The notes under the pieces are model-generated. The model was not told the DNA's origin. It made no database searches and was given only the letters and a program-made list of their open reading frames with translations. Source: an uncultured Staphylococcaceae bacterium (lineage in GTDB: Bacteria > Bacillota_I > Bacilli_A > ML615J-28 > CAG-313). From it: a stretch of DNA of 64,000 nucleotides. A program made the position numbers and the translations under genes. Of the stretch, positions 8,616 through 58,749 are shown piece after piece (position 1 is the stretch's first letter; the number at the start of each line of letters is the position of its first letter). Location of the stretch: positions 1,020 through 65,019 of the forward strand of contig CAZDPJ010000006.1 in NCBI GenBank assembly GCA_964507405.1, given 5' to 3'.

Positions 8616-8642
8616 ATATATCACCACTTATATTATATGTGG

Positions 8643-13220: not shown

Positions 13221-16200
13221 CTATTCAGCAAATGTAATAGTAATAGAAGTTACTCTCCATTGTTTATCATATGATAAAACAATTTCATCAGTACCAGTTT
13301 CACATGAAATAGTCCATGCTTTTCCTTCGTTTGAAACAGAAACATTTTTATCACTGCAGTTAATAACAGCATTCTTATCATGCACATCAGTAAATTCTAT
13401 TTTAGTAATTTTTTTACCATTTTTAGCAGTGATAGCGAATGAACTTCCTTGATATACTCTAAGTTGAGCTGCGCTTACATTAATATTTGTATTAGATTCT
13501 GCTTTATTAATTACAATTTCATAATCAGCATTTGCAGGAGCAATTACTAATGTATTACCATCTGTTGTATAAGTGTCTTTAACCCAAGTAAATACTACTT
13601 GATTAGCAGGAACAACCGTACCTTCAAGAACTTTTTCACCTAATTGAACTAACCAACCATTTTTAGTTTGTTTTGTTCCATTGTAATTTGAAAGAATACC
13701 ATAAATAACTACAGCATCACCAACTTTTGGTTTATCAGTTGTCATAGCATCAAAACGAACTTTACCATCTGCATTATATAATCCATATATTTTCCATATA
13801 TTACCAGCTACATCTTCAATATCCATATTTCCATAAGTATCATTTGTAATCTCCTTAACATAACCAGCTACATAATATTTTTCTGTTGTTGCATCATCTT
13901 TATTTGGAACAAGCGCACCAAGTTCTTCATAAGTTTTAACTTCGAAATCAGTTTCAATTTCTGTTTTAACAATTGGATCTGGATCTGGTTTAGGGTCAGG
14001 AGCTACTTCTTTAGATGCAGTATAGAAATGACCAACGAATGAAGTACTAGCATATTTAACATTGCTTCCGCTCATAGTTGTATAAGTATTATATGCACCT
14101 AAATAGTAAGTAGTAGTTCCATCACTTACTTGGTTAGTAACTGTAGTAACAATTGTATTATATTCACTATTCCATGTCCAAACATTTAATGGAGTTGTAC
14201 CTAATGAAAGTAGTGACGTATCTTTACCAGTGTTACTATTTGTTGAAGCTTCTAAATTAATATAAGTTTTTGTTTCACCATTTAAGAAATATACATGATA
14301 TCCACCTTCAACTTTTTCAACATAAAGTTTAGCAGCTTCATATCCATGTTCTGTAGTCTGATAGAAATTACCACTCATTTCACCAAGGAAATATAATCTA
14401 GCATTTTCTTTATTTTTTTGAATTAAAGAATAGTTATAAGCTACACCTTCTTTTAATTCAGTAATAATTGTATCATGACTTGGTTCAGGCATAACAACTT
14501 CTTCATCACCTACAAAGTATTCACCTTCACGGCCACTAAAGATTACACGAACATCACCAGAGAAATCAGCTTTTTGATTTCCATAGAAATAAACAAATAG
14601 AGTTACTCTTGTGTCAGTACCTGCAACAGCTGTAACAGCTTCAGGAACTGTTGAATAATATAAACTAATCTTCTTAGCATCTGCACTTTGAGATTCTGCT
14701 AAATAATAATAAGTAGTATCACCAGATGTATCAGCAACAACAACACCTTCAACCATTAAATATTGTCCGTAAGGAGCATTTTTAGATGTAGCAGCAACAA
14801 TTTCTGCGATTGTAGCTTCAGTAGGAACGCTCATATTCCAAGTTGCTTCTTCATGAGAAACATATTTAATAATAGAACCAATTTGAGGAGTACCATTGAA
14901 ATAATTAATTACACCAATAAATTCTACTTTATCACCAACGTTAACAGTTTTTTTAACATCACCAACTTTAATACCATCTTTCGTTCCAACATAAACTAAG
15001 ATATTTCCAGTTGCATCTTTTAAGTAATAGTTTTTATAACTACTAAATAATACATCAACTGTACCAGAAAGTTGAACAACGTCACCTTTTTCAAGTTTAA
15101 CAGCTTCATCAACTGTAGCAGTAGTTAATTTCTTAACAGTAATTTTAACTTCAACAACTTGAGTTAATTCACCAACAGTAACTGTTGCTTTGAAAGTAAC
15201 ATCAGTGTTGTTAGCTACTTCAGTAAATGCGTTATCAGCATAAGGAGCATCGCTAGGAATATCCCAAGCAATTGTTGCATCAACATCTTTGTTTTCAACA
15301 GGTAACACTAATTTAGAATAAGATGCATAAGAACCAGCTAATGCTTCAACTTCTTTAACAGCAATTGATAATTTATCTTCATCTGTTAATGTAGGAGCTT
15401 CAGCTTCTTCAATTCCACCATCCCATAATAAATGATTCTTTAAGATACGAGAGTCTCTATCATAAGTAACACCAGTAATAATAACATATTTACCAACATA
15501 TGATTTTAAGATTTCTTCTTGTGCAGTACTATAAGATTTGTAATAAACCCATGCAGTTTCGCCTGTATAAGGGTCAAGTAATTTATATTGATCTTTAGTT
15601 GTTTCATTATATTCAGATTCAACTTTAGCATATAATTTATAAAGGTCACCACCTAAATAACCAATAACGTTTTGAAGATTATCACCAGCACGTTCTTGTT
15701 CCCAAGCATCAATTGTTTTTTCTGTATATTCAGGAACTTCAATTCCACGGTCTTCAACAACTTTTACAGCAATATTGCTTCCAACTTGTAAACTTCCATA
15801 ATAAGAATAAATATCACCAGTAACATATACAGTATCACCAACTTTAACATCAGCACTCTTATAAACATAAATACCAGCAGTACCATCATGAACCATGAAT
15901 TGACCACTACCATCAGAATTTAATTTTGCTGTAACAACACCGTAGAATCCTACAGAATAAGTTGTATCACTTGCAGAAACTAATGCTTTATCAACTTTTT
16001 TCTCATTGTAAATATAATCGTAAGCATTTGCTTTTACTTCAGCAATTGTTCCAAAATCACCATCGAAACAAAGTACTGTAAATTCAAAATTCTTTGATTT
16101 TTTATATGAATCAGTCTTTTCTTCACCATTTGATTCATATGTATATTCAACTTCTGCAGTAGCAACTAGTTTAACAGGAACATGATAATAATCAACTTCT

Positions 16201-23824: not shown

Positions 23825-26800
23825 TTATTCCTCCTCTTTTTCTACTATATCTTCGCCAAAGAAGCTTTCAGCTTGATGGACTACTTGATTTTTTTTACTT
23901 ACTAAATTAGTAGTATTTATTACAACTATCTTTAGTTCTGGATTTTTTATAGGGGTAAGTCTAGGATATTTTATCCCCATATTATATTGACCTGCATACT
24001 CAAGTCTTTTTTCTTGCCATGTGTTTTCAGGTAAGGCAATAAAATCATAATCTTTACCAAAAGTAATTTTTAATACTTGTAATGCATTAGTGTGTCCTTT
24101 AGGTTCCATTAAATGATTACACATTGAAGCATGTGGATAAACTATTAATAATTCATTATAACCATTAGCAGTTAAAGTACCTTCTGATAAAAGTTTAGCT
24201 GTTGGTGATAATAAATGACCTACTCTATCTTCTAATTTAGACCAATTAGATAAAATATTAATTTTTTCTTCTCTACATTTTTGATCACGTGCTTGATGTA
24301 AGATTCTTTCTACAATTTTAGCATCATAAATTTTTGAAGTTTCGTCAGTTGGTTCTTCTTTTATATCACGTTGTAAAGGAGTTCTAATAACAACTGTTTT
24401 TTCATTTTTGATTAAATTAGGTTTATTAATTACTTCTTCTTTAGGAGTTTCCACCTTTACTTCAGGTTTTACTTCCTCTTTAGGTCCTTTTGCTTCTTCT
24501 ACTTCTGGTTCTCTTATAATTTCAAACGGGCTTCTACGTTTCGTTAAGCCACCATCAAGTTTGGTATTTATTTCATCAACCTTAGTTTGGATTTCTTGAA
24601 CCTTGATACTTAATTTAATACTATAGTCTTTCGCATCAGCAATTGCTTGTTGATTGTTTTCAATTAATTTGACATATTCATCAAAGGAATTATCTGGTAA
24701 TGCATTTATTTTATCATATAAATCAGTATAATTACTAATTATACTATTAGCTAAATCACTTCTTAAAGTATCTAGTTTATTTTGAATATCGTTTGTTAAT
24801 TCTTCTATTTTACTATCAATATTTGTTGTAGAATTTACATTAGATAACTTTTCTTCTATTTCTGTAAAGTCGTTTTGTAGCGATTGAACTAAAGAAACTA
24901 GTGAAATATAATTTTCATTTAATTGTGAAATTTCATCATTATCACTGCTTCCAGAATGAGTTATACCATTATATGAATTCTTTATATTACGTGCAAGTTC
25001 GTCTACACGGTTAATAACCATATCTAAATATTCTTCAATTACTTCTACTTTTTCATTTAAATTCTTAACATTATTTTTAACATCTACATCACTAGTTGAT
25101 ATTAAATTTTCTCCAGATTGTTGATTTGTAACCTCTTTTAATTGAATCATTTCTTGTTGTAAACTAGTAATCTTATTAACTAATTCAGTAGAATCAAAAT
25201 TATGTTCTTCAGGTACTACTTTCATTGAAGATACTTTTTGTTCTAATTCAGTAATTCTTGCGTCTACATCAAAAGGAACATCAGTAGTAGTTGTACTATT
25301 TGATTGAACTAAATCAATTTTTTGTTCTAATTCACTTAATTTTGTTTCTATATTAGAATAATTAGTAGTATCTGTATTTGTTGAATCTGTGTTTGATGTA
25401 TTTTTCATCAATTCAAGTTTTTGTTCTAATTCATTTATTTTGTTTTCTAATAAACTATTACTATTTGTTTCCGTAGATGGTATAGAAGAATTTGTTTTTA
25501 TAGATTCAAATTTTACTTCTAATTCTTTTATTGTTTCATTTATTTCTTGAATTTGTTCTTCTATTTTAGCAGGTTCGGCTTTATTTGCAAGTGATAAATC
25601 TTCAAGTAAATTAATCTTTGAAAGTATACTTTCTTTAAAATTTTGTGTATCTTGTTTATTAACTTCATTAATTATTTTTTTAACTTGATTATCTAGCGAA
25701 TTAACCTTAGATACTAATTCACCACTATATCCAGTACCGCCACCAAGTTTTATTGTTTCTACTTTTTCTTCTAATTTTTGAATTTGTCCTAAAATATCAA
25801 TATCTAAATTAGCACTATTAATTATTTTAATAATTCCAACCTCAAGATATATCTTAGGAGAATTTGTGAATCTAATCTTATTTTGAATATCTACAAACAA
25901 ATCAACATAATAGAATAATCTAGTTTCAGATGTTTCATGAGCAAGACTCATAAACGCTTCTTTATTATATATATATTGAGTACGAGTAGTATCTTTTAAA
26001 CTTTTATAAAGTAATAAATCTCTACAAAATTGAATTAAACTAGTTAATATTCTATTTACATCTTTACCAAGTTCTAATAAATCATTTACTCTATTTAATG
26101 CAACTTCAGTATCTTGATCATTTAGTGCTTTTATTAATTCAATCAAGTGTTGATAAGAAACATTTCCTGTAATATTATTTATATCTTCCATCGTTACTTG
26201 ATTAGAATTATATACTCTAGCTTGGTCTAAAACACTTAAAGCATCACGCATTCCACCTTCTGATGCTTCTGCGATACCTTGTAATGCTTCATCAGTGATT
26301 TTGATTTTTTCAAGTTGCGTAACTCTAATTAACATTTCGATTATTTCATGAGTTGATAATTGTTTAAAATCAAGTCTTTGACATCTTGAAAGAATAGTTG
26401 CTGGAATCTTATATGGTTCTGTTGTTGCTAGTATAAATATTACATGAGCAGGTGGTTCTTCTAATGTTTTTAAAAGTGCATTAAAAGCTGCGGTACTTAA
26501 CATATGAGCTTCATCAATGATATATACTTTTCTTTTTAGGCTGCTTGGTAGGAAATTAACTTTTTCAAGTATTTCTCGCATTTGGTCTACACCATTATTA
26601 CTTGCGGCATCAAGTTCAATAACATCTGTAGTTTCATCATTAATTATACTCTTACAACTATCACATTCATTACATGGTTCACCATTTATTGGATGTTCAC
26701 AGTTAACTGCTTTTGCGAAAATACGAGCAATTGTAGTTTTACCAATACCACGTAATCCACTAAATATATATGCATGTGATATTTTTCCTTCTAGCACAGC

Positions 26801-26896
26801 ATTCTCTAATATTTTTATAATGTGCTTTTGGCCAACAACTTCATCAAATCTCGTTGGACGGTATGTTCGATATAACGCTTTATATGCCACAGGCAC
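23825..26896 (-). CDS. dnaX: DNA polymerase III tau subunit, unusually long (1023 aa) owing to a central coiled-coil/low-complexity insert
   Basis: GLRGIGKTT Walker A, Zn module CNECDSCKS, LSRCQRLDF. The real start may be the GTG at 26888-26890 (MAYKALYR), which has better SD spacing. Confidence 0.93.
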   Translation of the reverse strand: MPVAYKALYRTYRPTRFDEVVGQKHIIKILENAVLEGKISHAYIFSGLRGIGKTTIARIFAKAVNCEHPINGEPCNECDSCKSIINDETTDVIELDAASNNGVDQMREILEKVNFLPSSLKRKVYIIDEAHMLSTAAFNALLKTLEEPPAHVIFILATTEPYKIPATILSRCQRLDFKQLSTHEIIEMLIRVTQLEKIKITDEALQGIAEASEGGMRDALSVLDQARVYNSNQVTMEDINNITGNVSYQHLIELIKALNDQDTEVALNRVNDLLELGKDVNRILTSLIQFCRDLLLYKSLKDTTRTQYIYNKEAFMSLAHETSETRLFYYVDLFVDIQNKIRFTNSPKIYLEVGIIKIINSANLDIDILGQIQKLEEKVETIKLGGGTGYSGELVSKVNSLDNQVKKIINEVNKQDTQNFKESILSKINLLEDLSLANKAEPAKIEEQIQEINETIKELEVKFESIKTNSSIPSTETNSNSLLENKINELEQKLELMKNTSNTDSTNTDTTNYSNIETKLSELEQKIDLVQSNSTTTTDVPFDVDARITELEQKVSSMKVVPEEHNFDSTELVNKITSLQQEMIQLKEVTNQQSGENLISTSDVDVKNNVKNLNEKVEVIEEYLDMVINRVDELARNIKNSYNGITHSGSSDNDEISQLNENYISLVSLVQSLQNDFTEIEEKLSNVNSTTNIDSKIEELTNDIQNKLDTLRSDLANSIISNYTDLYDKINALPDNSFDEYVKLIENNQQAIADAKDYSIKLSIKVQEIQTKVDEINTKLDGGLTKRRSPFEIIREPEVEEAKGPKEEVKPEVKVETPKEEVINKPNLIKNEKTVVIRTPLQRDIKEEPTDETSKIYDAKIVERILHQARDQKCREEKINILSNWSKLEDRVGHLLSPTAKLLSEGTLTANGYNELLIVYPHASMCNHLMEPKGHTNALQVLKITFGKDYDFIALPENTWQEKRLEYAGQYNMGIKYPRLTPIKNPELKIVVINTTNLVSKKNQVVHQAESFFGEDIVEKEEE

Positions 26897-35342: not shown

Positions 35343-36371
35343 CTATTTTGCATTCAAATCTATTTTTATTTTTCTTACACTTGATGTTCCATCATCAAAT
35401 TTAACTACAGTCTTAACGAATAAAGTTACAACATCATATACTTCATCAATTTTATATGAACTTAAGATTGTATCAGTAGATGCTGCTTTATTTAAAGCAC
35501 TACCTGCACAAGTATAGAAACGAACATATTCACTAAATATTTTGTGATCACAGTCTTTAGTATTTATTTTACCAAACACTTCAACTGAGAAATTTTCAAT
35601 TTTTTTATCTCCAAGATAAGTTTGGTTTAATTCTGTTTCAAAATTAAAACTATCTTTCTTGATAGAATCTTTTTTTGATTCTTCAGTTGCTTTAGTGTAT
35701 TCAATATTTACATCAATTGCTTCAGATTCATTCACTATATTGTCATCATTACCTAATAAACCATTTTCATATTTAGAAAAATCTTCAGACTCATAATCAG
35801 TAACTTTAAATTCTGTTTTTAATTCTTTGTTTATTTCTTCATTATCAATAACAATTGTATATTTAATATTTACATAAAGTTTTAAAGGAATATTATCAAC
35901 AACAGTTTCTTCTTTTGTTGAACTATCTACTGTAACAGATTGTTTAAAAATACTACTTGATATAAAAGAACTTGAACTTAATTGTGAATAAGTTGAACTT
36001 TTAGAAATTGAATAAGTAGATGAACTTTCATCAAACTTAATTTTACCTTTTCTATTAACTCCAGCAATAAAAGGTTTAATGTTTTTAATTTCATAACCTT
36101 TTGCGGCATCTTGTTTTTCTAAAAATCCTCTTACTTTATAAGTTGTTGATTCAAAATCAGATTCATTTTCTAATGTAGACTTTCTTTCTTCATAAACTCT
36201 AACAGTTAATTTCACATATTCATCATATGATTGTTCACAATATCCATCTAGTACTTTAGATTTTGTTGTTGAATTTAGTATTAAAATAGTAACAACTCCT
36301 ACTAAAGCAGTATATAACACAAGAATTAATATTTTTATTTTTGTACTTAGGGCTGATAATTTGCTTAACAT
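35343..36371 (-). CDS. hypothetical N-terminally anchored extracytoplasmic protein lying between oriC and rpmH
   Basis: 342 aa. One N-terminal TM (ILILVLYTALVGVVTILIL). Ser-rich patch. Its own terminator hairpin at 35316-35348. I recognise no family. Confidence 0.5.
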   Translation of the reverse strand: MLSKLSALSTKIKILILVLYTALVGVVTILILNSTTKSKVLDGYCEQSYDEYVKLTVRVYEERKSTLENESDFESTTYKVRGFLEKQDAAKGYEIKNIKPFIAGVNRKGKIKFDESSSTYSISKSSTYSQLSSSSFISSSIFKQSVTVDSSTKEETVVDNIPLKLYVNIKYTIVIDNEEINKELKTEFKVTDYESEDFSKYENGLLGNDDNIVNESEAIDVNIEYTKATEESKKDSIKKDSFNFETELNQTYLGDKKIENFSVEVFGKINTKDCDHKIFSEYVRFYTCAGSALNKAASTDTILSSYKIDEVYDVVTLFVKTVVKFDDGTSSVRKIKIDLNAK

Positions 36372-36470: not shown

Positions 36471-36542
36471 TTATCCACTTATCCACATGTGGATAACTAT
36501 CACTACTTATCCACTTTTTTTCCACATTATTAATGTGGATAA
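36471..36542. promoter_or_regulatory. oriC upstream DnaA-box cluster (5 boxes)
   Basis: TTATCCACt 36471-79, TTATCCACA 36479-87, TGTGGATAA 36488-96, TTATCCACt 36507-15, TGTGGATAA 36534-42. Confidence 0.9.
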
Positions 36543-36622: not shown

Positions 36623-38005
36623 ATGGAAATTGATAATTCAATTTGGTTAAAAGTTAAAGAGAAACTGAAAGAGACTATAGACGAACCAACATACCTTGCT
36701 ACTTTTGACGAAATTAAAGAAATTTATAAAGAACAAAATGGATACATTTATTTACCTGTATCAACTACTTTAATAAAATATCGTATTGAGAAATTCTATT
36801 TAGCAAGAATGAATGAGATTTTAAGTGAATTTGTCTCTGAAAAGATGTCTTTTAAATTAATTACAACAGCTGATATAGCGGTTGAAAAAGAAAATCAAGA
36901 GAAAAAAGCATTTTCTGCTCCTGATAAAGCGGATAAATTCAAGAGTAGAACATTAAGACCAGAATATACTTTTGAAAACTTTGTTACTGGCGAAGCCAAT
37001 AGAGAAGCTTTTACTTTTTCTATTAAGGTTGCTGATTCTCCACATGTAACAGTAAACCCTTTGTATATTTTTGGAGATGTTGGTTTAGGAAAAACACACC
37101 TTATGACGGCAATTGGCCATTATATTTTAGATAATAACATAAACGCTAATATTATTTTCACTACTGCACAACAATACACAGAAGATTATTTTAATGCAAC
37201 TAACAGAAATAATAGAAATTCTGACACATTAGATTCTTTTAATAATTTCTATCGTTCTGCAGACGTGCTATTAGTAGATGATATTCAATTTTTAAAAGAT
37301 AAAGTAAAAACTCAAGAAGAATTTTTTAAGTTATTTGAATATTTACATGAAAATAATAAACAAATTGTAATTACTTCTGATAGACCAGCCTCAGAACTTG
37401 AAATTATGGATCGTCTTAAATCTAGATTTAGTTGGGGAATCCCTGTTGATATTAAAAAACCTAATTTTGATTTGAGAAAAACTATTTTAAAAAAGAAATT
37501 AGCTTTCCTAATTAGTGATCCGAATGTTGTCCCTGATGATGTTTTAACATTTATTGCTGAAAATTTTCAAGAAAACGTAAGAGAACTAGAGGGAGCTTTA
37601 CGTCGTTTTGTTTCGTATTGTGTTGCTTTTAACATAGAATTTACGTTAGAAAACGCTCAAGCTTCATTGAATTCGATTATTTCTAAAGATAAACAAGTAG
37701 TAAATGTTAGTGATTCTGTTATAATTGAAAAAATAAAAAACGTTGTTGCCACTTATTTTAATATTAATATTAAAGATTTAGTGGGAACATCTAGAAAACA
37801 AGAGATTGCTTACGCAAGAATGATAACAACTTATCTTCTTAGAAAGGAATTAAACCTTCCTTTAAAGAAAATAGGTGAGTTATTAGGTGGTAGAGATCAT
37901 GCAACTATCGCTCATGCTATTGAAAAAATAACAAATTCAGTAGAAACTGACTCTTTAGTTAAGCAAGATGTGGAAGTTTTAATTCAAAAAATCAAGCAAA
38001 ATTAG
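36623..38005 (+). CDS. dnaA: chromosomal replication initiator DnaA
   Basis: 460 aa. NPLYIFGDVGLGKTHL, LLVDDIQFL, C-terminal DHATIAHA. Confidence 0.97.
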   Translation: MEIDNSIWLKVKEKLKETIDEPTYLATFDEIKEIYKEQNGYIYLPVSTTLIKYRIEKFYLARMNEILSEFVSEKMSFKLITTADIAVEKENQEKKAFSAPDKADKFKSRTLRPEYTFENFVTGEANREAFTFSIKVADSPHVTVNPLYIFGDVGLGKTHLMTAIGHYILDNNINANIIFTTAQQYTEDYFNATNRNNRNSDTLDSFNNFYRSADVLLVDDIQFLKDKVKTQEEFFKLFEYLHENNKQIVITSDRPASELEIMDRLKSRFSWGIPVDIKKPNFDLRKTILKKKLAFLISDPNVVPDDVLTFIAENFQENVRELEGALRRFVSYCVAFNIEFTLENAQASLNSIISKDKQVVNVSDSVIIEKIKNVVATYFNINIKDLVGTSRKQEIAYARMITTYLLRKELNLPLKKIGELLGGRDHATIAHAIEKITNSVETDSLVKQDVEVLIQKIKQN

Positions 38006-38008
38006 AAG

Positions 38009-38066
38009 TTATCCACTTATCCACATAGCTAATAATAAATATAATATACAAATATAAATAATAAAT
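38009..38066. promoter_or_regulatory. oriC downstream element: two DnaA boxes followed by TAG/TAA trinucleotide repeats and an AT-rich putative unwinding element
   Basis: TTATCCACt 38009-17, TTATCCACA 38017-25, then TAGcTAATAATAAATATAATATAC.... Confidence 0.7.
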
Positions 38067-38078
38067 AGGGAGGATTTT

Positions 38079-39203
38079 ATGAAATTTATAATGAATCGAG
38101 AACTATTGTTATTAACTTTACAAAATGTTTCTCGTGGATTATCAGATAAAAAACCATTTCCTGTGCTTACAGGAATACAAATTAATGTAGAAAAACACAA
38201 AATTGTCTTTGTTACTACAAATAAAGACATTTCTGTTCAAATAGTTTTAGAAGAAAATAATGATGTAGTGATTGAAGAAACTGGAGCTTGTGTAGTTCCT
38301 GGTAAGTATTTTTTAGAAATAGTTAAGAAATTAGAGGGTAAAGAAGTTGAATTCACATTGTTTGAATCAACAACAATTAAGATTTTATCAGACCGTTCAG
38401 ACTTTACTTTAGTGACTTATGATAATTCTTTATTCCCTGTAATTAACTTTGAATTAGAAGAAGAGCCAATTCATTTAGATGCTCAAATGTTAAAAAATGT
38501 GATTAAACAAACTACTTTTGCGGCTGCAACATCAGAAGCAAGAATCGTTCTAACTAGTGTAAATTTCAAATTTTTTGGTAATAAATTGGAAATTACCGCA
38601 ACCGATTCGTTTAGGTTAGCAAGAAAAAATATTGAATTTGAAGATAATTTCAATTCTCAAATAATCAATATTCCAAGTAAATCATTAGATGAATTCTCTA
38701 AAATAATAGAAGATTCACATGAAGATGTCGAGTTAATAATCAAAAACAAAACTGCGATTTTCAAATATCGCAATGTAACTTTCATGACAAGATTAGTTGA
38801 AGGAACGTATCCAGACACATCAAGTTTGTTCCCTAAAGACCAAATGTTGACAGTTAAATTCAATAGAAATGAGCTACTTTCTGCAGTGGATAGAGCCTCA
38901 TTATTTACAAGTTCAGAGAATTTAAGCATTGTAAAAATGACTCTTACACCTAAAAACTCAGTTGAAATTTCATCAAACTCTACTGAAATAGGTAAAGTTG
39001 TAGAGGAAATCTATCCATTAGAGGTTTCAGAAAACCTTAATTTCCAAATTGCATTTGGAACAAAAAATCTAAGCGATGCACTAAAATCCTTTGAAAGTCA
39101 AAGTATTCTTATAAAGTTCACTGGAGAGATAAAACCAGCCATAATTGTGGGTGAAAAAGAGCAAGATTTGATACAATTGCTTCTCCCGGTTAGAGTGTTC
39201 TAA
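38079..39203 (+). CDS. dnaN: DNA polymerase III beta sliding clamp
   Basis: 374 aa. Position after dnaA. PVLTGIQI..., ATDSFRLA, LLLPVRV. Confidence 0.95.
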   Translation: MKFIMNRELLLLTLQNVSRGLSDKKPFPVLTGIQINVEKHKIVFVTTNKDISVQIVLEENNDVVIEETGACVVPGKYFLEIVKKLEGKEVEFTLFESTTIKILSDRSDFTLVTYDNSLFPVINFELEEEPIHLDAQMLKNVIKQTTFAAATSEARIVLTSVNFKFFGNKLEITATDSFRLARKNIEFEDNFNSQIINIPSKSLDEFSKIIEDSHEDVELIIKNKTAIFKYRNVTFMTRLVEGTYPDTSSLFPKDQMLTVKFNRNELLSAVDRASLFTSSENLSIVKMTLTPKNSVEISSNSTEIGKVVEEIYPLEVSENLNFQIAFGTKNLSDALKSFESQSILIKFTGEIKPAIIVGEKEQDLIQLLLPVRVF

Positions 39204-39382: not shown

Positions 39383-40168
39383 CTATAAAACCATTGATTT
39401 ATATACTTCTGTAAGCTCTTTTCTTATCTGATCACGGTTCTTTTGATGAAATTTATCTTTCATTTGGTGGTTATCAAAGACTGAAACACCTTCGGCTTGT
39501 AGGTTTTTGATAACTGACTTGTCATTTATAGGTGGGGTAACAATAGCTTCTGGAGTTTGAATTTTAGCTCTTTCTGTTAGTTGTTTTAGGCAAGCTTTAG
39601 GGGCAAGCTTAACAGGGTGGTATCCGATAGGAATTACGTACTTAATTTTGCTCAAATTGATGTCAGAATCAACAAAATATTGAATTGTATTCGAATAACC
39701 CTCCAAACCAAGAGCATCAAGCCCTACTGCAAGAAGAATAGAATCGCTTAAGTCTAATAATATTTCACTTAAACGACTGCTCGAAGGCGGGAAATCGATA
39801 AAAATATAATCAAAATATTTAGTAAAATCTTGAATTAAAGCCCTTAAATGCTTCTCTTCGGTTCTTTTTAACGTTAAATTTAGTGAAAGTCTGTCTGTAT
39901 TTAAGGTTTTCATTAAATACATATTTATTCTTGCCTCAAAAACTACATCTTGAGGCTTTTTTTCTCCAACAAATAAATGTTCGAAGAAATCATCGTCATG
40001 ATCTGTTACATAATGCTCTGCACCGAATATTTTAAAAATACTGTTTTGGTCATCAGCACTAATAACTAAAACTGTTTTACCTAATGTTGCATAATAATGT
40101 GCAAGGTATCCAAGGAATGTTGTTTTACCTACACCACCTTTTTTACAAAAGCAAGAAACAATTGGCAT
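39383..40168 (-). CDS. small ParA/Soj-superfamily partition ATPase (type Ib-like, no N-terminal HTH)
   Basis: 261 aa. MPIVSCFCKKGGVGKTT deviant Walker A with signature Lys. YIFIDFPPS Walker-B-like. SD GGAGG lies inside the end of the upstream gene. Confidence 0.85.
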   Translation of the reverse strand: MPIVSCFCKKGGVGKTTFLGYLAHYYATLGKTVLVISADDQNSIFKIFGAEHYVTDHDDDFFEHLFVGEKKPQDVVFEARINMYLMKTLNTDRLSLNLTLKRTEEKHLRALIQDFTKYFDYIFIDFPPSSSRLSEILLDLSDSILLAVGLDALGLEGYSNTIQYFVDSDINLSKIKYVIPIGYHPVKLAPKACLKQLTERAKIQTPEAIVTPPINDKSVIKNLQAEGVSVFDNHQMKDKFHQKNRDQIRKELTEVYKSMVL

Positions 40169-40542
40169 TAATATTTACCTCCTTCTCTAGATAATTTTTC
40201 TCTACAAGCTTCTTCAATGAATTCTGAGAACATTTTGCCGTTTGTTGCACAGAAAATCTTAATACTTCTACGTAATGAAACATCCATAGTTGCGGTATAC
40301 TTTTCTTTTGGTCCATCCATTTGTGGAATGTATTGAGGTTTTGGTTGTTTCCTTGTAGTTCTTGGCGCTTGTTGCACTGGTTGTTGATAATAATAGCTTT
40401 CTTGTTGTGATTGTTGAATCACTTGAGGTTGAATTTGAGGTGTTGGTTCTTGAACTACCTCTTCAACCACTTTTTCTTCCTCTTCTTCGACTGTAATTTG
40501 TCTATCAAAGGGATTAACTCTCTTTTTTACTTGATCGTTCAT
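40168..40542 (-). CDS. ParA partner candidate: basic N-tip, acidic and Gln/Pro-rich disordered linker, C-terminal ribbon-helix-helix-like domain
   Basis: 124 aa. C-terminal KYTATMDVSLRRSIKIFCATNGKMFSEFIEEACREKL fits a beta-alpha-alpha pattern. RBS AGGAGG. Stop overlaps the parA-like start (TAATG). Confidence 0.6.
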   Translation of the reverse strand: MNDQVKKRVNPFDRQITVEEEEEKVVEEVVQEPTPQIQPQVIQQSQQESYYYQQPVQQAPRTTRKQPKPQYIPQMDGPKEKYTATMDVSLRRSIKIFCATNGKMFSEFIEEACREKLSREGGKY

Positions 40543-40566
40543 ATTAAACCTCCTATTTACACAACT

Positions 40567-40594
40567 ATTATATCATTATAAAAATTAAAGTCAA
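40567..40594 (-). promoter_or_regulatory. putative promoter of the RHH-parA operon (TTGACT-16-TATAAT)
   Basis: -10 reverse complement at 40567-40572, -35 reverse complement at 40589-40594, about 25 nt upstream of the AGGAGG RBS. Confidence 0.6.
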
Positions 40595-41321
40595 CCGATT
40601 TGCAATATTTACTTACATACATACAACCATAAAAACAGATAGCATTCTTTTGCTATTAATAAAAAATATAAAAATATTAAAAAATAAAATTAAAACGGAA
40701 ATTCGTTTCAAAAATCATTTCAAAAATCAAAAATGAGGCTAAAAAAGCCCATAAAAATAAATTTTTGAAAAAAAAGTGAAAAATTACTAATCCCCCGGGG
40801 GGTAAAATCGAAATTTTTGAGTTTTTTGTAGACCACAGAAAACGCAGAAAATTAGAGTATGTATTTATGTAAAACCATCAAACCATTTTTCTGTATCCAG
40901 AGAAAGTACGATTTTTGGTGCGAGTTGTGGAAAAGTGCCACTGGTATTCAAAAAACCAAAGCTGTAAGCTAAAAAAGTTTTAAGATTTAAGAAAAATATG
41001 TAGTAAAATTATAATTTAAAAGAATAATAACAAAACATACTTTTTAGATAAAAATAAAATTGAACAAAATTGTTATAAATCAAAATAAAAATATTAGAAT
41101 TTAAAATAAAAATATAGTATTTATTTTGAAAACAAAATTATTTCTACATAACATTGTTTGAATATTAAAACAATAATTTGTCTATATTGTTTTAATGTAA
41201 AACGAGCCTAATCATAAAAGGTTTTAAAATATATATAAAACAATTAGAATGTAAAAGTTTAATAAAGCAACGTTGTTTGAATTAAAAAGTAAAAGTTTTA
41301 ACAAACAATAAAGATTGATTT

Positions 41322-41512
41322 AAATAGATATGTATGGAAAGATAAAAATAAAACAATATTTACGTATAATAATATAACAATAAGTAAATAAATATGTATC
41401 ACAAATAAATAAAACTGTATAGTAATAATTATTGTAATAATTAAATAAATATATATGTATAAAAATAAATACAATTGTAAGTAAAGCAATACAAAAATAA
41501 ATATTTTTGTAT
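41322..41512. repeat. degenerate iteron-like array: six copies of AAATA(A/G)ATA-N0-5-TGTA
   Basis: Copies start at 41322, 41386, 41403, 41443, 41463 and 41495. The sequence is low-complexity, so significance is uncertain. Confidence 0.4.
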
Positions 41513-41557
41513 GGGTGTAAATATAGAAATAATAGTTTGTTATTCAAAATAATAAAA

Positions 41558-41626
41558 AAATGGTCAAAAACACTAAAAAACCACCTTAAAAAGCCAAGCA
41601 TAAAGTTAAAATTAAATGGTCAAAAA
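41558..41626. repeat. exact 13-bp direct repeat AAATGGTCAAAAA, two copies 56 bp apart
   Basis: Copies at 41558-41570 and 41614-41626. The reverse complement contains TTGACC. Confidence 0.5.
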
Positions 41627-41830
41627 ATCATAATTATATATTATATATATAAATAAGGAATATACTTATTTATGTATAAAAAATGGATTAAAAATTACAA
41701 AAAACTCAAAACGTCCGTTTTTTGTTCGGAAATTTTCGCTTGACAAAAAAACTTTTGGATTATTAAAAAAAGCTTATTTTTTGATAAAAATTAGCTTTAA
41801 AAATCATGACTAAAGTCATAGGCTTTTTAC

Positions 41831-41859
41831 TTGTAAAAAAAGGGCTTTTGTGGTATAAT
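41831..41859 (+). promoter_or_regulatory. putative yaaA-gyrB-gyrA promoter (TTGTAA-17-TGgTATAAT)
   Basis: -35 at 41831-36, extended -10 at 41851-59. Confidence 0.6.
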
Positions 41860-41888
41860 TATAATGTATGAGAATAGAGGTGTTGCAC

Positions 41889-42104
41889 ATGAACAAAGAA
41901 GTGCTTATAAACACCGATTTTATTACCCTAGGACAGTTCTTAAAGTATGCTGGAATTATTCAAAATGGGGGTCAAGCAAAGGCTTTTTTAGCTGAAAATG
42001 AGGTTAAAATCAACGAAATTATTGATCAAAGACGTGGAAAAAAGCTTTTTGAGAATGATAAAATCGAAATTAATGGGCAAAAATATGTTATTTGTAAGGA
42101 ATAA
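41889..42104 (+). CDS. yaaA: S4-domain RNA-binding protein YaaA
   Basis: MNKEVLINTDFITLGQFLKYAGIIQNGGQAKAFL.... ATG at 41889, 8 nt after GAGG. The track ORF starts at 41868. Confidence 0.85.
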   Translation: MNKEVLINTDFITLGQFLKYAGIIQNGGQAKAFLAENEVKINEIIDQRRGKKLFENDKIEINGQKYVICKE

Positions 42105-42151
42105 TGTTGAAAAAGTAATAAAAACATGTAAAAAAGAAGGAGGTTTTATTA

Positions 42152-44077
42152 ATGGCTGAGTTAAATGATAAAACTAATTACGATTCGAGTAGTATACAAG
42201 TCCTTGAAGGCATGGAAGCAGTAAGAAAAAGACCTGGTATGTACATTGGTAGTACTGGACCTAGAGGATTACACCATTTAGTATGGGAAATTGTAGATAA
42301 TTCTGTCGATGAAGCACTAGCAGGCTTTTGTAATGAAATTGATGTCGAAATATTGCCAGATAATATAATTTGTGTTACGGATAATGGGCGTGGTATGCCC
42401 ACAGATATTCATCCAAAAACACATGTTTCAGCAACAGAAACCATCTTTACTGTGCTTCATGCAGGTGGTAAATTTGACAGTAATACATACAAAGTTTCTG
42501 GTGGTTTACACGGTGTAGGTGCATCTGTTGTTAATGCTTTAAGTGAATGGCTTGAGGTCTATGTTAATCGTGGTGGTAAGAAATTTTATCAAAAGTATAG
42601 AAGGGGTGTTCCTGAAACGCCACTTCAAACTATCGGCGAGACAAACATAACTGGGACAACTGTTAGGTTTAAGGCTGATGGAGAAATCTTTAGAGAAACG
42701 GTAGAGTATGATTATGAGACATTAAGACAAAGACTCCAAGAACTAGCTTTCTTAAATAAAGGCATTAAGCTTAATGTTACTGATTCTAGAAATCCAGACA
42801 ATATCAAAAAAGAAGAATATCATTATGATGGTGGTATTTCTGAATATGTTAAATATTTGAATAGAAATAAAAAACCATTGCACAGTGATGTTATTGTTGT
42901 GGATGAAGAAGTTGAAGGAAGCGTAATTGAAATAGCCTTCCAATATACAGAAGACTATAGTTGTGTTATAAGATCCTTTACTAATAATATTATTAACCAA
43001 GAAGGTGGAACTCATGAAGAAGGTTTTAGAACCAGCCTTACTCGTATTCTAAATAACTATGGTAAAACGTCTAATATCTTTAAAAAAGACGAAATATTTA
43101 CAGGTGATGATGTTCGTGAAGGACTAACTGCTATTGTTTCTTGTAAGATTAGTGACCCTCAATTTGAAGGACAAACTAAAACTAAACTTGGAAATACAGA
43201 GGTTAGAAGGATTGTTTCACAAGCTATGTCTGATAAATTAGAAGCCTATTTGTTAGAAAATCCTGCTACTGCAAGACTCATTGTCGAAAAAGGTGTTCTT
43301 GCTTTAAGAGCTCGTATCGCGGCAAAAAAAGCTAGAGAAGCAACGAGAAGAAAGAGCCCTTTAGATATGCTTGACTTTGCTTCAAAACTATCAGATTGCC
43401 GTACAAAAGACCCTGCACTTGCTGAAATGTACATCGTCGAAGGTGACTCTGCCGGTGGATCTGCTAAGCAAGGCAGAGATAGTTATTACCAAGCTATCCT
43501 CCCTCTACGTGGAAAAGTATTGAATGTTGAAAAAGCTTCAGCTCATAAGATTCTTAGCAACAACGAAATTATTTCAATTATTCAAGCAATAGGCACAGGA
43601 ATAGAAAAAGAATTCAAAATTGAGAATGCTAGATATCATAAAATAGTCATTATGACCGATGCCGATGTCGATGGTGCACATATTAGAATATTGTTATTAA
43701 CATTCTTCTATCGCTTTATGAGACCTCTTATTGAAAATGGTTATGTTTATGTTGCACAACCTCCTTTATATAAGATTCAAAAAGCGAAAAAGATCAATTA
43801 TGCATATAGTGATGAAGAAAAAGATGAAATTGTAAATGAAATGAGTAAAATTCCTGGAAGAGTTGATATTCAACGTTATAAAGGTCTAGGAGAAATGAAC
43901 GCAGAACAATTATGGGAAACAACAATGGACCCTAAATATCGTACTTTATTACAAGTTACGATGGAAGATAGTGAAAAAGCAGCAAAAATATTTGCGGATT
44001 TAATGGGTGAAGATGTAGAACCAAGACGTAGATTTATCGAAGAAAATGCTGTCTTTGTTCAAAATTTAGACGTATAG
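42152..44077 (+). CDS. gyrB: DNA gyrase subunit B
   Basis: 641 aa. [42 protein letters not shown]. Confidence 0.98.
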
Positions 44078-49684: not shown

Positions 49685-50011
49685 CTATTCTTGGTAAGGA
49701 TATTCATAATTTAATTCTTCATCAAAAGTTACATAAGATAAATAGATTGTTAATAATAAATATCTTATACCTGTTTGAGGGTCTTTTAAAATAATATGGT
49801 CTTTACCAGCTGCCTCAATTGTTCCTTTAAAGATTTTAGAACCCCATTGGCTTCCTTCAAAACTCATATATACAGTTGCCAGTTTTCCACGGTTAAGACG
49901 TAAAATATTTTCAATATATGATTGTTCTAAAAAAGGATTTTGAGTTTGTACTTGTGGTTGAAATCCATATGGATTATAAAAACCATAAGGTTGTTGATAG
50001 TTAATTGTCAT
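49685..50011 (-). CDS. gerQ: spore coat protein GerQ
   Basis: 108 aa. Q/P/Y-rich N-terminus, then SYIENILRLNRGKLATVYMSF...GTIEAAGKDHIILKDP. Adjacent to the cwlJ-like gene. Confidence 0.75.
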   Translation of the reverse strand: MTINYQQPYGFYNPYGFQPQVQTQNPFLEQSYIENILRLNRGKLATVYMSFEGSQWGSKIFKGTIEAAGKDHIILKDPQTGIRYLLLTIYLSYVTFDEELNYEYPYQE

Positions 50012-50059: not shown

Positions 50060-50479
50060 TTAATAACAATTTTCTGATTCTACTGGACTATAAAAACAAT
50101 GAGATTTGTACTTTCCAGTATTCCACTGGCCATACCACTGAGCACTACAATCAGAGTTTGATGAATTATAAAACCAAAGTGCTCGAGAGGCAGGATGAAA
50201 TTGTTCACCTTTTATTACTTTACGAGCTAATCTTATATCTTTTTGTCTTGCTGCTTGATAAAAGTATGAATATAATGTTGATTCAAAACCGCCAGGATGT
50301 TGATAGACCATTTGTTCTACGGTTGAAATATTAGTAAAATCTAAACATTTCGCACGAACCCGGTTAACACCAACATTTCCAACCATCAACATTCCAAGTT
50401 CACCCTCAGCTTCAGCTTCTGCTCTCATTAGTCTAGCTAATAATTTAACTTCCTTTTCGTTACATGCAATAATTCCCAT
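50060..50479 (-). CDS. cwlJ: spore cortex-lytic cell-wall hydrolase, CwlJ/SleB family
   Basis: LLARLMRAEAEAEGELGMLMVGNVGVNRV...QPGGFE.... ATG at 50477-50479. Confidence 0.8.
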   Translation of the reverse strand: MGIIACNEKEVKLLARLMRAEAEAEGELGMLMVGNVGVNRVRAKCLDFTNISTVEQMVYQHPGGFESTLYSYFYQAARQKDIRLARKVIKGEQFHPASRALWFYNSSNSDCSAQWYGQWNTGKYKSHCFYSPVESENCY

Positions 50480-50581
50480 AATACACCTCATTAAATAATA
50501 TCTCTAAATTTTTAAAAATATGCTAATAAAATGCTAAAAAATTAAAATTAGGTTATAATATTATCAATAAAGGTGATTTAA

Positions 50582-58218: not shown

Positions 58219-58749
58219 ATGAAAGCAACAGGAGTCGTTAGAAGAATAGATGATTTAGGTAGAATTGTTCTACCAAAAGAACTAAGAAGAACAATGAGAA
58301 TCAAAGAAGGAGATTCACTAGAGATATATATAGATGGTCTTGATCAAATAATGTTAAAAAAGTATTCTCCAGTTCAAAGCCTAAATGAATTTGTTAAAGA
58401 ATTTGTTGAAAGTGTTTATGCATCTAATAAATTAGATATAATAATAACAGATAATGAAAGAGTAATTGCATGCGCAGGTAACTTTAAAGTAAACTTAGTG
58501 GGCAAAAAAATATCAATGAGATTAGAAGATAAATTAAACAAGAGACAAACTCAAATTATTGATATGGGTGAAAATTTTGAAATATGTGATAATATTGAAA
58601 ATAATAGACCATTAATTATCAGGCCAATAAATGTATATGGTGATATCTTAGGCTGCGTTATTATTTTAGGTGAGACGGGAATTACATCGGTTGAAAAATC
58701 AATTGCTGAATTTAGTGGAACCTTTATTAGTAAATATTTAGAAAGTTAG
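58219..58749 (+). CDS. spoVT: stage V sporulation protein T (AbrB-type N-domain + GAF-like C-domain)
   Basis: 176 aa. MKATGVVRRIDDLGRIVLPKELRRTMRIKEGDSLEIY. Sits in the mfd-spoVT synteny as in B. subtilis. Confidence 0.88.
   Translation: MKATGVVRRIDDLGRIVLPKELRRTMRIKEGDSLEIYIDGLDQIMLKKYSPVQSLNEFVKEFVESVYASNKLDIIITDNERVIACAGNFKVNLVGKKISMRLEDKLNKRQTQIIDMGENFEICDNIENNRPLIIRPINVYGDILGCVIILGETGITSVEKSIAEFSGTFISKYLES

Follow-up and report, generated by a model that had tools for sequence, protein, structure and literature searches.

The window, by which we mean the whole 64,000-nucleotide stretch of DNA that was analysed, carries near oriC two minus-strand genes that diverge from the S4/YaaA-gyrB-gyrA operon across a long non-coding tract. 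The first gene (40168–40542, minus strand) encodes a 124-aa ribbon-helix-helix (RHH) protein, a candidate centromere-binding protein, and its stop codon overlaps the start of the second, parA (39383–40168, minus strand), whose 261-aa product is a ParA-like ATPase with matches to Pfam AAA_31 (1.6e-21) and CbiA. Proximity of the tract to the origin, as proposed by the initial annotation, was borne out by a DnaA-box cluster at 36471–36542 and two further boxes at 38009–38025 that are followed by TAG-C-TAATAATAA trios.

The ATPase has the features of a type Ib ParA: it is small, carries a deviant Walker A motif, KGGVGKT (in CKKGGVGKTT), that is invariant across the family, and has no N-terminal DNA-binding (HTH) domain. 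Its nearest solved structures are Soj proteins, with an E-value of only 7.5e-9, and its matches to NCBIfam ParA_partition and PrgP are weak and below cutoff. A tblastn search of 72,556 PLSDB plasmids returned no plasmid homologue of ParA at E<1e-8 and none of the 124-aa protein, and neither could be placed in a described plasmid par family (delta/omega, ParFG, PrgPO etc.), the matches to Omega_Repress and PrgP remaining below the curated cutoffs. A ParB-type domain is absent from every long ORF of the 64-kb window, and no parS with two or fewer mismatches is present in it.

The 124-aa protein comprises an N-terminal KKRVNPF segment (N-terminal peptide, MNDQVKKRVNPFDR), a Q/E/P-rich disordered linker and a C-terminal RHH domain. 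It matched Pfam Omega_Repress with an E-value of 0.004, which is below the cutoff, and a phmmer search of the PDB retrieved SvtR (2KEL), itself an RHH protein, at E 1.3e-3. In the AF2 model two helices (residues 88–101 and 105–120; block-mean pLDDT ~88–94 over residues 91–120) are preceded by a KYTATMD strand, and the best Foldseek matches were nearly all RHH proteins (TM to target 0.6–0.77), with E-values that are not significant for a domain this short. Phmmer, AF2 and Foldseek all point to the RHH fold. MNxxFKKRxNPF/L and KYTATMD hardly vary across the family alignment, while the linker that follows the former has low pLDDT and varies in length among homologues. Judged by its sequence, the N-terminal tail is compatible with a predicted role in stimulating the ParA ATPase.

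By ORF bounds the tract extends from 40543 to 41867 (1325 bp), and the initial annotation was right to call it the longest non-coding stretch of the window: the next-longest gaps are 338, 330 and 318 bp, making it four times longer than any other. Since S4 probably starts at the ATG at 41889, located 7 nt downstream of GAGGTG, the gap more likely spans 40543–41888, or 1346 bp, and gene calls on identical public contigs likewise give a 1346-bp gap. We found no credible gene between the RHH start (40542, minus strand) and S4, in agreement with the earlier description of the tract as gene-free; the two minus-strand ORFs listed there are indeed F/Y/I/L-rich strings with no Pfam match. The description of the tract as extremely AT-rich holds for a 690-bp core (40950–41640; 16% GC), but not for the left 400 bp, where GC is 25–35%; the gap as a whole has 20.7% GC and the window 28.5%.

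To assess conservation, as the initial annotation had suggested, we compared the region with related loci spanning it, in which ParA identity ranged from 95% down to 52%. The comparison revealed that the position of the tract is conserved across the clade. All 40 distinct spanning loci have the order dnaA-dnaN-<parA<RHH-[long gap]-S4>(recF)>gyrBA, with the same gap from the RHH start codon to the likely S4/YaaA start; its length is 1268–1443 bp at ParA identity of at least 62% and 850–2730 bp at greater distance. The larger part of the tract evolves fast, to near-saturation, so that the gap is only ~64% identical to that of a relative with a 95%-identical ParA, and yet, despite this rapid divergence, islands at fixed positions (blocks B, D, E, F, G and H) and two promoters persist, the islands being ungapped and near-identical. 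In distant relatives D, G and H are lost, whereas the long gap and the boxes described below are kept. The organisms are uncultured low-GC bacteria of a widespread group found in gut and digester, and throughout this group the unannotated ParA/RHH pair and the long box-bearing AT tract occupy a fixed place between dnaN and yaaA-gyrBA. The tract causes most short-read assemblies of this group to break right at the origin. As assemblies break here, and as both proteins are unnamed, homologues of the RHH protein being at most annotated as hypothetical, the locus has probably been overlooked so far.

The conserved elements are arranged as follows. Nearest to the RHH gene lies the par promoter (40567–40594, minus strand), with TTGACT, a 16-nt spacer and a TG-extended TATAAT (11/12 matches), whose −10 and −35 columns are conserved in relatives. 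Directly upstream of its −35 element is block B (40598–40640, TTGCAATATTTACTTACATACATACAACCATAAA), an operator-like cluster with TACATA at 40614 and 40618 that is near-identical among relatives, a promoter-proximal box cluster being present even in the most distant ones. Block D (40725–40830) is an ungapped island of ~100 bp with phased A/T runs and a GC palindrome, CCCCCGGGGGG (40792–40802), followed by TAAAATC; the palindrome is single-copy in the window, and its symmetry is kept when its centre varies (CCCTAGGG, CCCCCTAGGGGG). Block E (40857–40885, GTATGTATTTATGTAAAACCAT) is an inverted copy of the block B motif with TATGTA at 40858 and 40866, 8 bp apart, and the B/E inverted repeats are found in the window and in two relatives (L006 and L014). 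The extreme-AT core keeps its length while evolving fast and contains degenerate repeats in 4-bp and 8-bp register; the 4-bp periodicity could stem in part from slippage of TAAA-type microsatellites in AT-rich DNA. Within the core lies a central series of boxes (41329–41459), with TATGTA at 41329, TACGTA at 41361 and TATGTA at 41393, exactly 32 bp apart, and a further TATGTA at 41454; the equivalent region in relatives has 3–8 boxes. Block F (41489–41512), the palindrome ATACAAAAATA-AA-TATTTTTGTAT, can be read as a pair of inverted, box-like half-sites at a spacing of 16 bp; it is ungapped in the alignment and conserved among relatives.

The strongest island, block G (41637–41690), reads TATATATAAATAAGGAATATAC and continues into a TATGTA box at 41671. 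Its core, ATAAGGAATATAC, is single-copy and unique in the window, and where block G is kept, that is, in most relatives with ParA identity of at least 62%, it is fixed at ~1050–1180 bp into the gap. Block H (41709–41750; AAACGTC-NN-TTTTTT-NN-T(A/C)GGAAA-WWW-TCG-NN-TAACAAAA) follows ~65 bp past G in every relative above the same identity level, and its motif is not enriched elsewhere in the window. The promoter of the S4/YaaA-gyrB-gyrA operon (41831–41859, plus strand; TTGTAA, 17-nt spacer, TG-extended TATAAT) completes the tract and is conserved as T(G/A)TGGTATAAT in nearly all relatives. Several by-eye resemblances, namely a PurBox in H, CodY and NrdR boxes, a Noc/parS-like reading of the D palindrome, a dif/Xer core in G and sigma-H/E/G/K promoters, were dropped as not conserved or not fitting. 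We likewise abandoned a mobile-element origin, since neither protein has a PLSDB plasmid homologue and no exact copy of the G or D motif occurs in the viral contigs of IMG/VR, and an invertible segment or RNA end-pairing, since the long-range 27-nt inverted repeat (40804–40830/41696–41722) is not reproduced in relatives.

The features singled out earlier from the letters alone were different ones. The 11-bp stem at 41165–41175/41185–41195 is an exact inverted repeat (TTAAAACAATA/TATTGTTTTAA), but it is marginal by self-BLAST (E 0.12) and lies outside the conserved islands, and none of the repeats and hairpins listed there is among the conserved features. The A4-6 runs said to recur at helical spacing around 40990–41100 instead have a period of 12–12.5 bp (z 6.5); in the 10–11.25 bp band 62% of shuffles score as well as the A/T tracts do. 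With a period of ~12 bp, A-tract bending at the helical repeat was dropped.

What is strongly enriched in the gaps is a quasi-palindromic box, TAYRTA (core CATAAATA), as part of an 8-bp unit, TAYRTAWW. Across the 40 gaps the box hexamers occur at 9.6 per kb as opposed to 0.93 per kb in flanking DNA; for CATAAATA the two densities are 2.94 and 0.16 per kb. In the window the density is 8.2 per kb in the gap versus 0.89 per kb in intergenic DNA elsewhere at matched GC. Simulations placed the boxes well beyond chance: TACATAAATA (with at most one mismatch) occurs 10 times in the window gap versus 1.4–1.8 expected, a count reached in none of 500 simulations, and TACATA/TATGTA/TACGTA 11 times versus 2.2–2.9 expected (0/1000 simulations). 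In a set of 11 gaps, TACATAAATA was found 23 times, in 9 of them, with 0.6 expected.

The boxes, which occur in both orientations, are also in strict register. Same-strand TACAT spacings land on 8, 16, 24, 32 and 40 bp, with the 8-bp spacing seen 44 times in the distant group (2.1 expected) and 8 times in the close group (0.4 expected), and in the position weight matrix TAYRTA repeats each 8 bp. Tandem repeats with periods of 32, 16, 24 and 40 bp are shared by at least 10 relatives, and autocorrelation across the clade peaks at lags of 32 (z 10.3) and 8, indicating a 32-bp super-period; in the window alone the periodicity signal is not significant. Its arrays are sparse and degenerate, with 11 strong hexamers in 1.3 kb that are rarely contiguous, and a strict scan of the window for 3 x TACATAAA gave only 3 matches versus 0.45 expected, so regular triple arrays are not a trait of the window lineage. 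Four distant relatives (L088, L090, L067 and L073) have near-regular TAYRTAWW runs, mostly of 2–3 contiguous boxes, between parA and dnaN. In distant relatives box arrays thus also lie downstream of parA, and the boxes flank the par operon.

Taken together, these results indicate that the tract is a real non-coding element and belongs neither to oriC nor to an RNA gene, nor is it junk or what is left of recF. We consider it probable, at roughly 65%, that the tract, ~2.5 kb away from where oriC unwinds, acts in cis as both centromere and operator for a chromosomal partition system of type Ib architecture built on ParA and the RHH protein. The initial annotation had offered, among its options, that the tract serves the adjacent ParA/RHH pair in cis as a type Ib centromere, and this option gained partial, comparative support from synteny, from the enrichment of boxes in register, from their placement on both sides of the par genes in distant relatives and from the RHH strand and basic peptide of the partner protein. 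As expected of a type Ib centromere, short iterated repeats, enriched ~10-fold in the gaps of all relatives, lie upstream of the par operon, with a cluster (block B) beside its promoter. In the mechanism that we propose, RHH dimers would read the TAYRTA boxes through the invariant KYTATMD beta-ribbon, and their binding to the block B boxes beside the par promoter would provide autoregulation. The boxes in E, in the central series and in F and G, set in 8-bp/32-bp register over ~1.1 kb of deformable AT-rich DNA, would nucleate a large nucleoprotein complex, probably a cooperative or wrapped one. The basic KKRxNPF peptide on its flexible linker could then stimulate the ATPase of nucleoid-bound ParA, and newly replicated origin regions would be pulled apart, as in plasmid type Ib systems.

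Several observations count against the centromere reading, among them the sparse, rarely contiguous boxes of the window itself and its non-significant periodicity. The best-conserved islands, D, the G core and H, are not box arrays; these single-copy islands fall outside the model and may be sites for other factors. Known type Ib centromeres measure ~100–300 bp, so box binding leaves the retention of 1.3 kb unexplained, and the RHH-before-ParA gene order is unusual for par operons. A competing role is that of a topological or regulatory buffer: a long AT tract, readily melted and deformed, between the divergent par and S4-(recF)-gyrB-gyrA promoters, which would take up or sense supercoiling close to the origin, for instance in relaxation-dependent gyrase expression, with D, G and H as sites for gyrase-operon regulators and the boxes as a par operator only. 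In every case the gyrase operon promoter directly follows the tract, G and H are fixed ~170–230 bp from that promoter, and the low GC of the core fits such a role, as do the swaps between A-runs and T-runs at the same alignment positions, which suggest constraint on DNA shape rather than sequence, and the ~11.75–12 bp period that recurs in the A/T tracts of many relatives. In distant relatives, however, boxes also sit on the other side of the par operon, away from the gyrase promoter, and the long gap and the boxes remain where D, G and H are gone; we regard a buffer as unlikely, if the most serious of the competing accounts.

The other explanations fare worse. An auxiliary oriC element, be it a second unwinding region or a loading platform, was another option of the initial annotation, and the tract is indeed only 2.5 kb from the dnaA-dnaN unwinding unit and richer in AT than any other DNA in the window. 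The window gap, however, contains no DnaA-box cluster and just a single TTTTCCACA box with 1 mismatch (40926–40934), and although DnaA-box clusters do occur, at the gap end nearest S4, in a few distant relatives, at ParA identity of at least 62% there are 0–1 near-consensus boxes per gap, none positionally conserved. A complete bipartite oriC exists elsewhere, with 6 boxes upstream of dnaA and, between dnaA and dnaN at 38009–38060, 2 boxes, TAG-C-TAA trios and an AT-rich stretch, as in the basal unwinding system of Firmicutes; every locus has both parts, and the strand-skew switch is near dnaA. An origin function of the tract is thus very improbable. We give slightly less credence still to non-coding RNAs or small proteins encoded in the tract, which its strong conservation and islands, the A-rich plus strand in 10 of the 11 gaps compared initially (AT skew +0.07 to +0.29) and a terminator-like hairpin (40736–40750, minus strand) might suggest. 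That hairpin is not conserved, the gap has no Rfam match at E<=1 and no tRNA or tmRNA gene by ARAGORN, and RNAalifold yielded 0 consensus pairs for 15 G-H sequences and, for 11 D sequences, only a 3-bp GC stem of invariant pairs without covariation, so neither a known family nor a covarying structure was found in the gap. Moreover, A-rich and T-rich versions replace each other in G (right arm) and in the block C runs, so that no strand-specific reading could survive. Small conserved ORFs were rejected, since a six-frame all-against-all BLASTP of 18 gaps re-found only the DNA islands, with translated matches to one and the same block in several frames and on either strand and with unconserved stops; an ORF of 23 codons after block G stays in frame in the closest relatives only. 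Least credible is non-functional DNA, either remnants of lost genes such as recF, as had been proposed, or an inserted AT-rich island. While recF is missing from its usual place in the window and most of the tract evolves near saturation, recF is intact between S4 and gyrB in 6 of the 11 relatives first examined, next to gaps of equal length, and no coding remnant is detectable. Retention of the tract down to 52% ParA identity, islands at fixed positions and the lack of similarity to plasmids or viral contigs also speak against it, and the comparative data already contradict this explanation.

More tentatively, we propose a stronger form of the centromere reading, which is possible but doubtful. 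The clade, a group of low-GC Bacillota, may have replaced, or may never have had, ParB-CTPase/parS, and may segregate its chromosome through an RHH-type ParB acting on a kilobase-scale 'regional' centromere; the ~1.3 kb of extreme-AT DNA, kept in length though evolving fast and set in 8-bp and 32-bp register, would be coated by the RHH protein and wrapped into a superhelical filament anchored by blocks B, D, E, F, G and H. Such a system would stand in bacteria as SegAB does in archaea, and would mark a step on the way from a point-like to a regional centromere. To our knowledge, bacterial origin segregation is thought to proceed almost universally by ParB-CTPase/parS or without a Par system; RHH-type centromere-binding proteins have been described for plasmids and, among chromosomes, for those of archaea. 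If correct, the centromere reading would give bacteria a second way of segregating chromosomal origins and provide a natural system for how RHH proteins build large partition complexes.

Among known systems, Soj/Spo0J-parS is likewise origin-proximal, with a ParA-family ATPase and a presumed role in origin segregation; the partner here is, however, a 124-aa RHH protein and not an HTH/CTPase ParB, and the ParA is distant from Soj. RHH dimers of MetJ bind tandem 8-bp metboxes with a palindromic core, which makes an 8-bp register a natural footprint for the RHH fold, but MetJ is a transcriptional repressor acting on 2–5 boxes, with no ParA partner and no kilobase-scale region. Published RHH centromeres follow comparable principles, which favours the centromere reading. 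One parallel is TP228 ParF-ParG, in which a small ParA likewise works with an RHH centromere-binding protein whose N-terminal tail is flexible, and where parH and OF, upstream of parFG, consist of 4-bp boxes, some direct and some inverted, separated by AT spacers of 4 bp; the shared features are an upstream centromere doubling as operator, short boxes with AT-rich spacers, an 8-bp register and tolerance of degenerate boxes (PMC3130281). Unlike plasmid-borne TP228, the present locus is chromosomal and beside oriC, its box is the 6-bp quasi-palindrome TAYRTA rather than ACTC, its boxes are dispersed over ~1.3 kb with a 32-bp super-period rather than contiguous over ~100–160 bp, the RHH gene precedes parA, and sequence homology to plasmid systems could not be detected. 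To pSM19035 delta/omega the RHH protein is linked by the Omega_Repress match, weak and below the family cutoff. There, 7-bp repeats overlap the promoters and at least 4 contiguous repeats are required (PMC9499535); repeats that overlap or adjoin promoters, an expected one short repeat per RHH dimer and an N-terminus that activates ParA, predicted in our case, are common to both (PMC9499535). The omega repeats, however, are non-palindromic (WATCACW) and form contiguous runs of 7–10, whereas the unit here is 8 bp, palindrome-like and, in the window lineage, mostly non-contiguous. SegA-SegB is the only well-described chromosomal pair of ParA and RHH proteins that we know of. SegB sites likewise lie just upstream of the segAB operon, its unstructured N-terminus stimulates SegA, and it forms a superhelical, chromatin-like assembly with DNA (PMC8682754). 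SegAB is archaeal, whereas our locus is bacterial, beside oriC and without sequence relationship to it, and SegB sites are 23-bp imperfect palindromes at few positions, as opposed to the box arrays in a kilobase-scale AT tract described here.

The window comes from a low-GC (28.5%) bacterium and spans its origin region, in which rnpA and a 342-aa ORF of unknown function precede dnaA (36623-38005, +) and dnaN (38079-39203, +). These are followed by a ParA-like gene (39383-40168, -), the gene for a 124-aa ribbon-helix-helix (RHH) protein (40168-40542, -), a long non-coding tract and, beyond it, the S4/YaaA gene, gyrB and gyrA. We found no credible gene between 40543 and the S4 gene, and the two minus-strand ORFs proved to be F/Y/I/L-rich translations, as the initial annotation had read them, and gave no family matches. 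The gene-free tract is real as an observed feature, with its end, placed there at 41867, needing revision: the S4 gene likely starts at ATG 41889, which follows a GAGGTG ribosome-binding site and yields a 71-aa product matching the call on two identical public contigs. The gap is then 1346 bp, exactly as the gene callers left it on those contigs, and is indeed the longest non-coding stretch in the window (the next gaps are 338, 330 and 318 bp). ATG 41868, which the ORF list takes as the S4 start and which would add 41868-41888 to the gene, falls inside the promoter and 5′ leader. GC content is 20.7% across the gap and 16% in its core (40950-41640). Good sigma-70-type promoters lie at both edges, one for the RHH/ParA operon (TTGACT-16-TGaTATAAT, 40594-40567, -) and one for S4 (TTGTAA-17-TGgTATAAT, 41831-41859, +). 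The two promoters diverge, and the roughly 1.2 kb separating them is thus left unaccounted for.

Three further features of the window deserve mention. The 342-aa ORF (35343-36371, -) lies between rpmH and the DnaA boxes clustered upstream of dnaA and matches nothing in Pfam or NCBIfam; the eight relatives looked up via ParA homologues all have a counterpart, 307-366 aa long and likewise lacking a recorded Pfam hit. The dnaX (tau/gamma) homologue (23825-26896, -) is unusually long at 1023 aa, with Pfam domains covering only the first ~365 residues. Finally, since the window encodes GerQ, a CwlJ/SleB-type hydrolase, the YabG protease and SpoVT (49685-50011, -; 50060-50491, -; 7845-8627, -; 58219-58749, +), the organism looks like a spore-former, although relatives are labelled Mollicutes, Acholeplasmatales or Mycoplasmataceae in public records.

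Related loci were collected by a DnaN search with one genome per species (four loci, labelled uncultured Mollicutes, Bacillota or Acholeplasmatales in the source records), by look-ups of eight ParA homologues (eight further loci) and by a metagenome scan with a ParA alignment (80 loci), leaving 40 distinct gaps after duplicate removal. The order dnaA-dnaN-<parA<RHH-[long gap]-S4>(recF)>gyrB>gyrA was observed in every locus with enough DNA. The gap measures 1268-1443 bp in loci whose ParA shares at least 62% identity with that of the window, and 850-2730 bp at 52-61% identity. Six of the 11 relatives first examined (L006, L009, L011-L014) carry recF between S4 and gyrB, and it is missing from this place (42104-42152 in the window) in the window and in four relatives (L004, L007, L008, L010). 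Since the gap is equally long with or without recF, the earlier suggestion that the tract is decayed recF is excluded. Among the related loci L015-L094, 47 of the 78 metagenome contigs with an RHH-ParA pair terminate inside the gap, some of them with 20-48 kb of sequence on the far side. Short-read assemblies are thus systematically interrupted by the tract at the origin, its high AT content being the presumed cause.

Alignment of orthologous loci, which had been proposed as a check, revealed a gap retained clade-wide with conserved islands. The window's gap is ~64% identical, with many indels, to that of a relative with a 95% identical ParA, a value close to saturation for such AT-rich DNA. 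Near-identical or gap-free in alignment across species are the two promoters and blocks B (40598-40640), D (about 40725-40830, holding the only GC palindrome, CCCCCGGGGGG, then TAAAATC), E (40857-40885), F (the palindrome 41489-41512 plus flanks), G (41637-41690, core ATAAGGAATATAC) and H (41709-41750). In relatives with ParA identity of at least 62% that retain the blocks, D lies ~240-267 bp and G ~1050-1177 bp from the RHH start, with a D-to-G distance of mostly 841-868 bp; H is retained in all relatives at this identity, ~65 bp past G. Blocks D, G and H are each single-copy in the window. At several alignment positions, for example in block C and in G's right arm, an A-run of one species is a T-run of another, a swap that preserves duplex properties but not a strand-specific reading.

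Motif searches against simulated backgrounds showed that particular words exceed chance in the gaps. When k-mers in 11 gaps were compared with second-order Markov simulations, TACATAAATA ranked top (23 exact copies in 9 of the 11 gaps versus 0.6 expected), with ATACATA and CATAAATA just behind. The window's gap contains TACATAAATA with at most one mismatch 10 times (1.4-1.8 expected; 0/500 simulations) and TACATA, TATGTA and TACGTA 11 times together (2.2-2.9 expected; 0/1000 simulations), a hexamer density of 8.2 per kb versus 0.89 per kb in other intergenic DNA of the same GC content. Taking the 40 loci together, hexamer density is 9.6 per kb in gaps versus 0.93 per kb in flanks, and that of CATAAATA is 2.94 versus 0.16 per kb. 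A weight matrix built without the window gives the unit as TAYRTA followed by two W positions; because TAYRTA nearly equals its own reverse complement, boxes are found in both orientations. Same-strand TACAT copies are spaced by 8, 16, 24, 32 or 40 bp, other spacings being essentially empty, and pairs at 8 bp number 44 in the distant group (2.1 expected) and 8 in the close group with ParA identity of at least 62% (0.4 expected). A tandem-repeat period of 32 bp (also 16, 24 and 40 bp) is found in at least 10 species, and the close-group autocorrelation has its maxima at lags of 32 (z 10.3) and 8 (z 8.6). Window boxes at 41329, 41361 and 41393 are spaced exactly 32 bp apart; since periodicity in the window alone is below significance and strict triple arrays are rare there, the case for a register rests on the clade.

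The A-runs at 40990-41100 had been described as helically spaced. Instead, A/T runs recur every 12-12.5 bp (z 6.5), and 62% of shuffled sequences score equally well in the 10-11.25 bp band. An A/T-tract period of ~11.75-12.25 bp rather than 10.5 bp (z 3-6, roughly ten species) is seen in most relatives' gaps and at 40950-41640 in the window, and may relate to the 4-bp/8-bp register or reflect a superhelical path. The arms of the 11-bp inverted repeat (41165/41185) match exactly, but its statistical significance is marginal (E 0.12).

The 261-aa ParA is short, has a deviant Walker A motif and is distantly related to Soj. Its candidate partner begins with MNDQVKKRVNPF, followed by a low-complexity linker of variable length and low pLDDT and a C-terminal RHH domain (SvtR match, E 1.3e-3; confident AF2 helices). 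Its Foldseek neighbours are nearly all RHH proteins, though so short a domain yields no significant E-values; its homologues are unnamed or labelled hypothetical. The motif MNxxFKKRxNPF/L and the DNA-reading strand KYTATMD are near-invariant across 72 family members, which fits the clade-wide conserved box motif. PLSDB plasmids contain no homologue of either protein. No ParB or parS was found within the 64 kb window, where parS-like matches comprise seven with three mismatches (2 expected) and none with two or fewer. The near-palindrome AGTTTCACATGAAATA (13296-13311), three mismatches from parS, lies within a large surface-protein gene.

Three observations link the boxes to the par genes and not to the origin or the gyrase operon. 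The block B box cluster beside the par -35 is the sole feature kept even in the most distant relatives. Below 62% ParA identity, blocks D, G and H are lost and the long gap and box enrichment persist, one gap holding up to 51 near-matches. In four relatives (L088, L090, L067 and L073), a second near-regular TAYRTAWW set lies in the parA-dnaN intergenic region just past the parA terminator (ParA start +800 to +1200), mostly as runs of 2 or 3 contiguous boxes and in L090 as ~7 clusters, so that boxes stand on either side of the operon. The window's own parA-dnaN spacer, only 179 bp, holds a bidirectional terminator and a single AAACCATTAAAT.

Taken together, synteny, box register and the flanking boxes of distant relatives favour the initial annotation's proposal that the tract is the cis site of the ParA/RHH pair, while its bending argument falls away. 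That the tract is the centromere of this pair is the best-supported reading, to which we assign a probability of roughly 0.65, and the locus is of relevance to chromosome-segregation research. A topological or regulatory role for the gyrase operon, unlikely for the tract as a whole since it fails to explain the boxes downstream of parA, is possible for part of it and may be the purpose of D, G and H. The tract does lie beside oriC, as had been noted, but an auxiliary oriC element is improbable: the gap has essentially no DnaA boxes and the origin is complete without it, with six DnaA boxes upstream of dnaA and, in the 73-bp dnaA-dnaN spacer, two more followed by TAG-C-TAATAATAA. Some distant relatives carry clusters of 2-5 DnaA boxes at the S4-proximal gap end (L073, 1903-1972; L062, 1259-1303; L067, 2603-2614), which are absent from the gaps of the window and its close relatives.

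RNA genes or small proteins encoded in the tract are very improbable. The gap has no Rfam or tRNA match, consensus structure or covariation, and the A/T flips between species argue against an RNA; translated similarity simply follows the DNA islands, appearing on either strand and in several frames. Junk or mobile DNA is hardly credible given retention across the clade and the absence of matches to plasmids or viruses.

The centromere reading finds parallels in known systems. In TP228, the RHH protein ParG coats 20 degenerate 4-bp boxes with 4-bp AT spacers; direct and inverted, these lie upstream of parFG and double as operator and centromere (PMC3130281). The omega protein of pSM19035 recognises 7-bp repeats that overlap promoters, and ParA activation takes a minimum of four contiguous copies (PMC9499535). 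Archaeal SegB, also an RHH protein, has sites upstream of segAB; its unstructured N-terminal part stimulates SegA, and the protein winds DNA into a superhelical fibre (PMC8682754). The present locus shares its parts list and register logic with TP228, pSM19035 and archaeal SegAB. Unlike them, it is bacterial, chromosomal and adjoins oriC, and it uses another box and another gene order. Its region extends over ten times the length, the boxes being dispersed and showing a 32-bp super-period, and no sequence homology to plasmid families described so far could be detected. Given the shared logic and these differences, we place it by analogy as an element that would work like a type Ib centromere and would be new relative to the described families.
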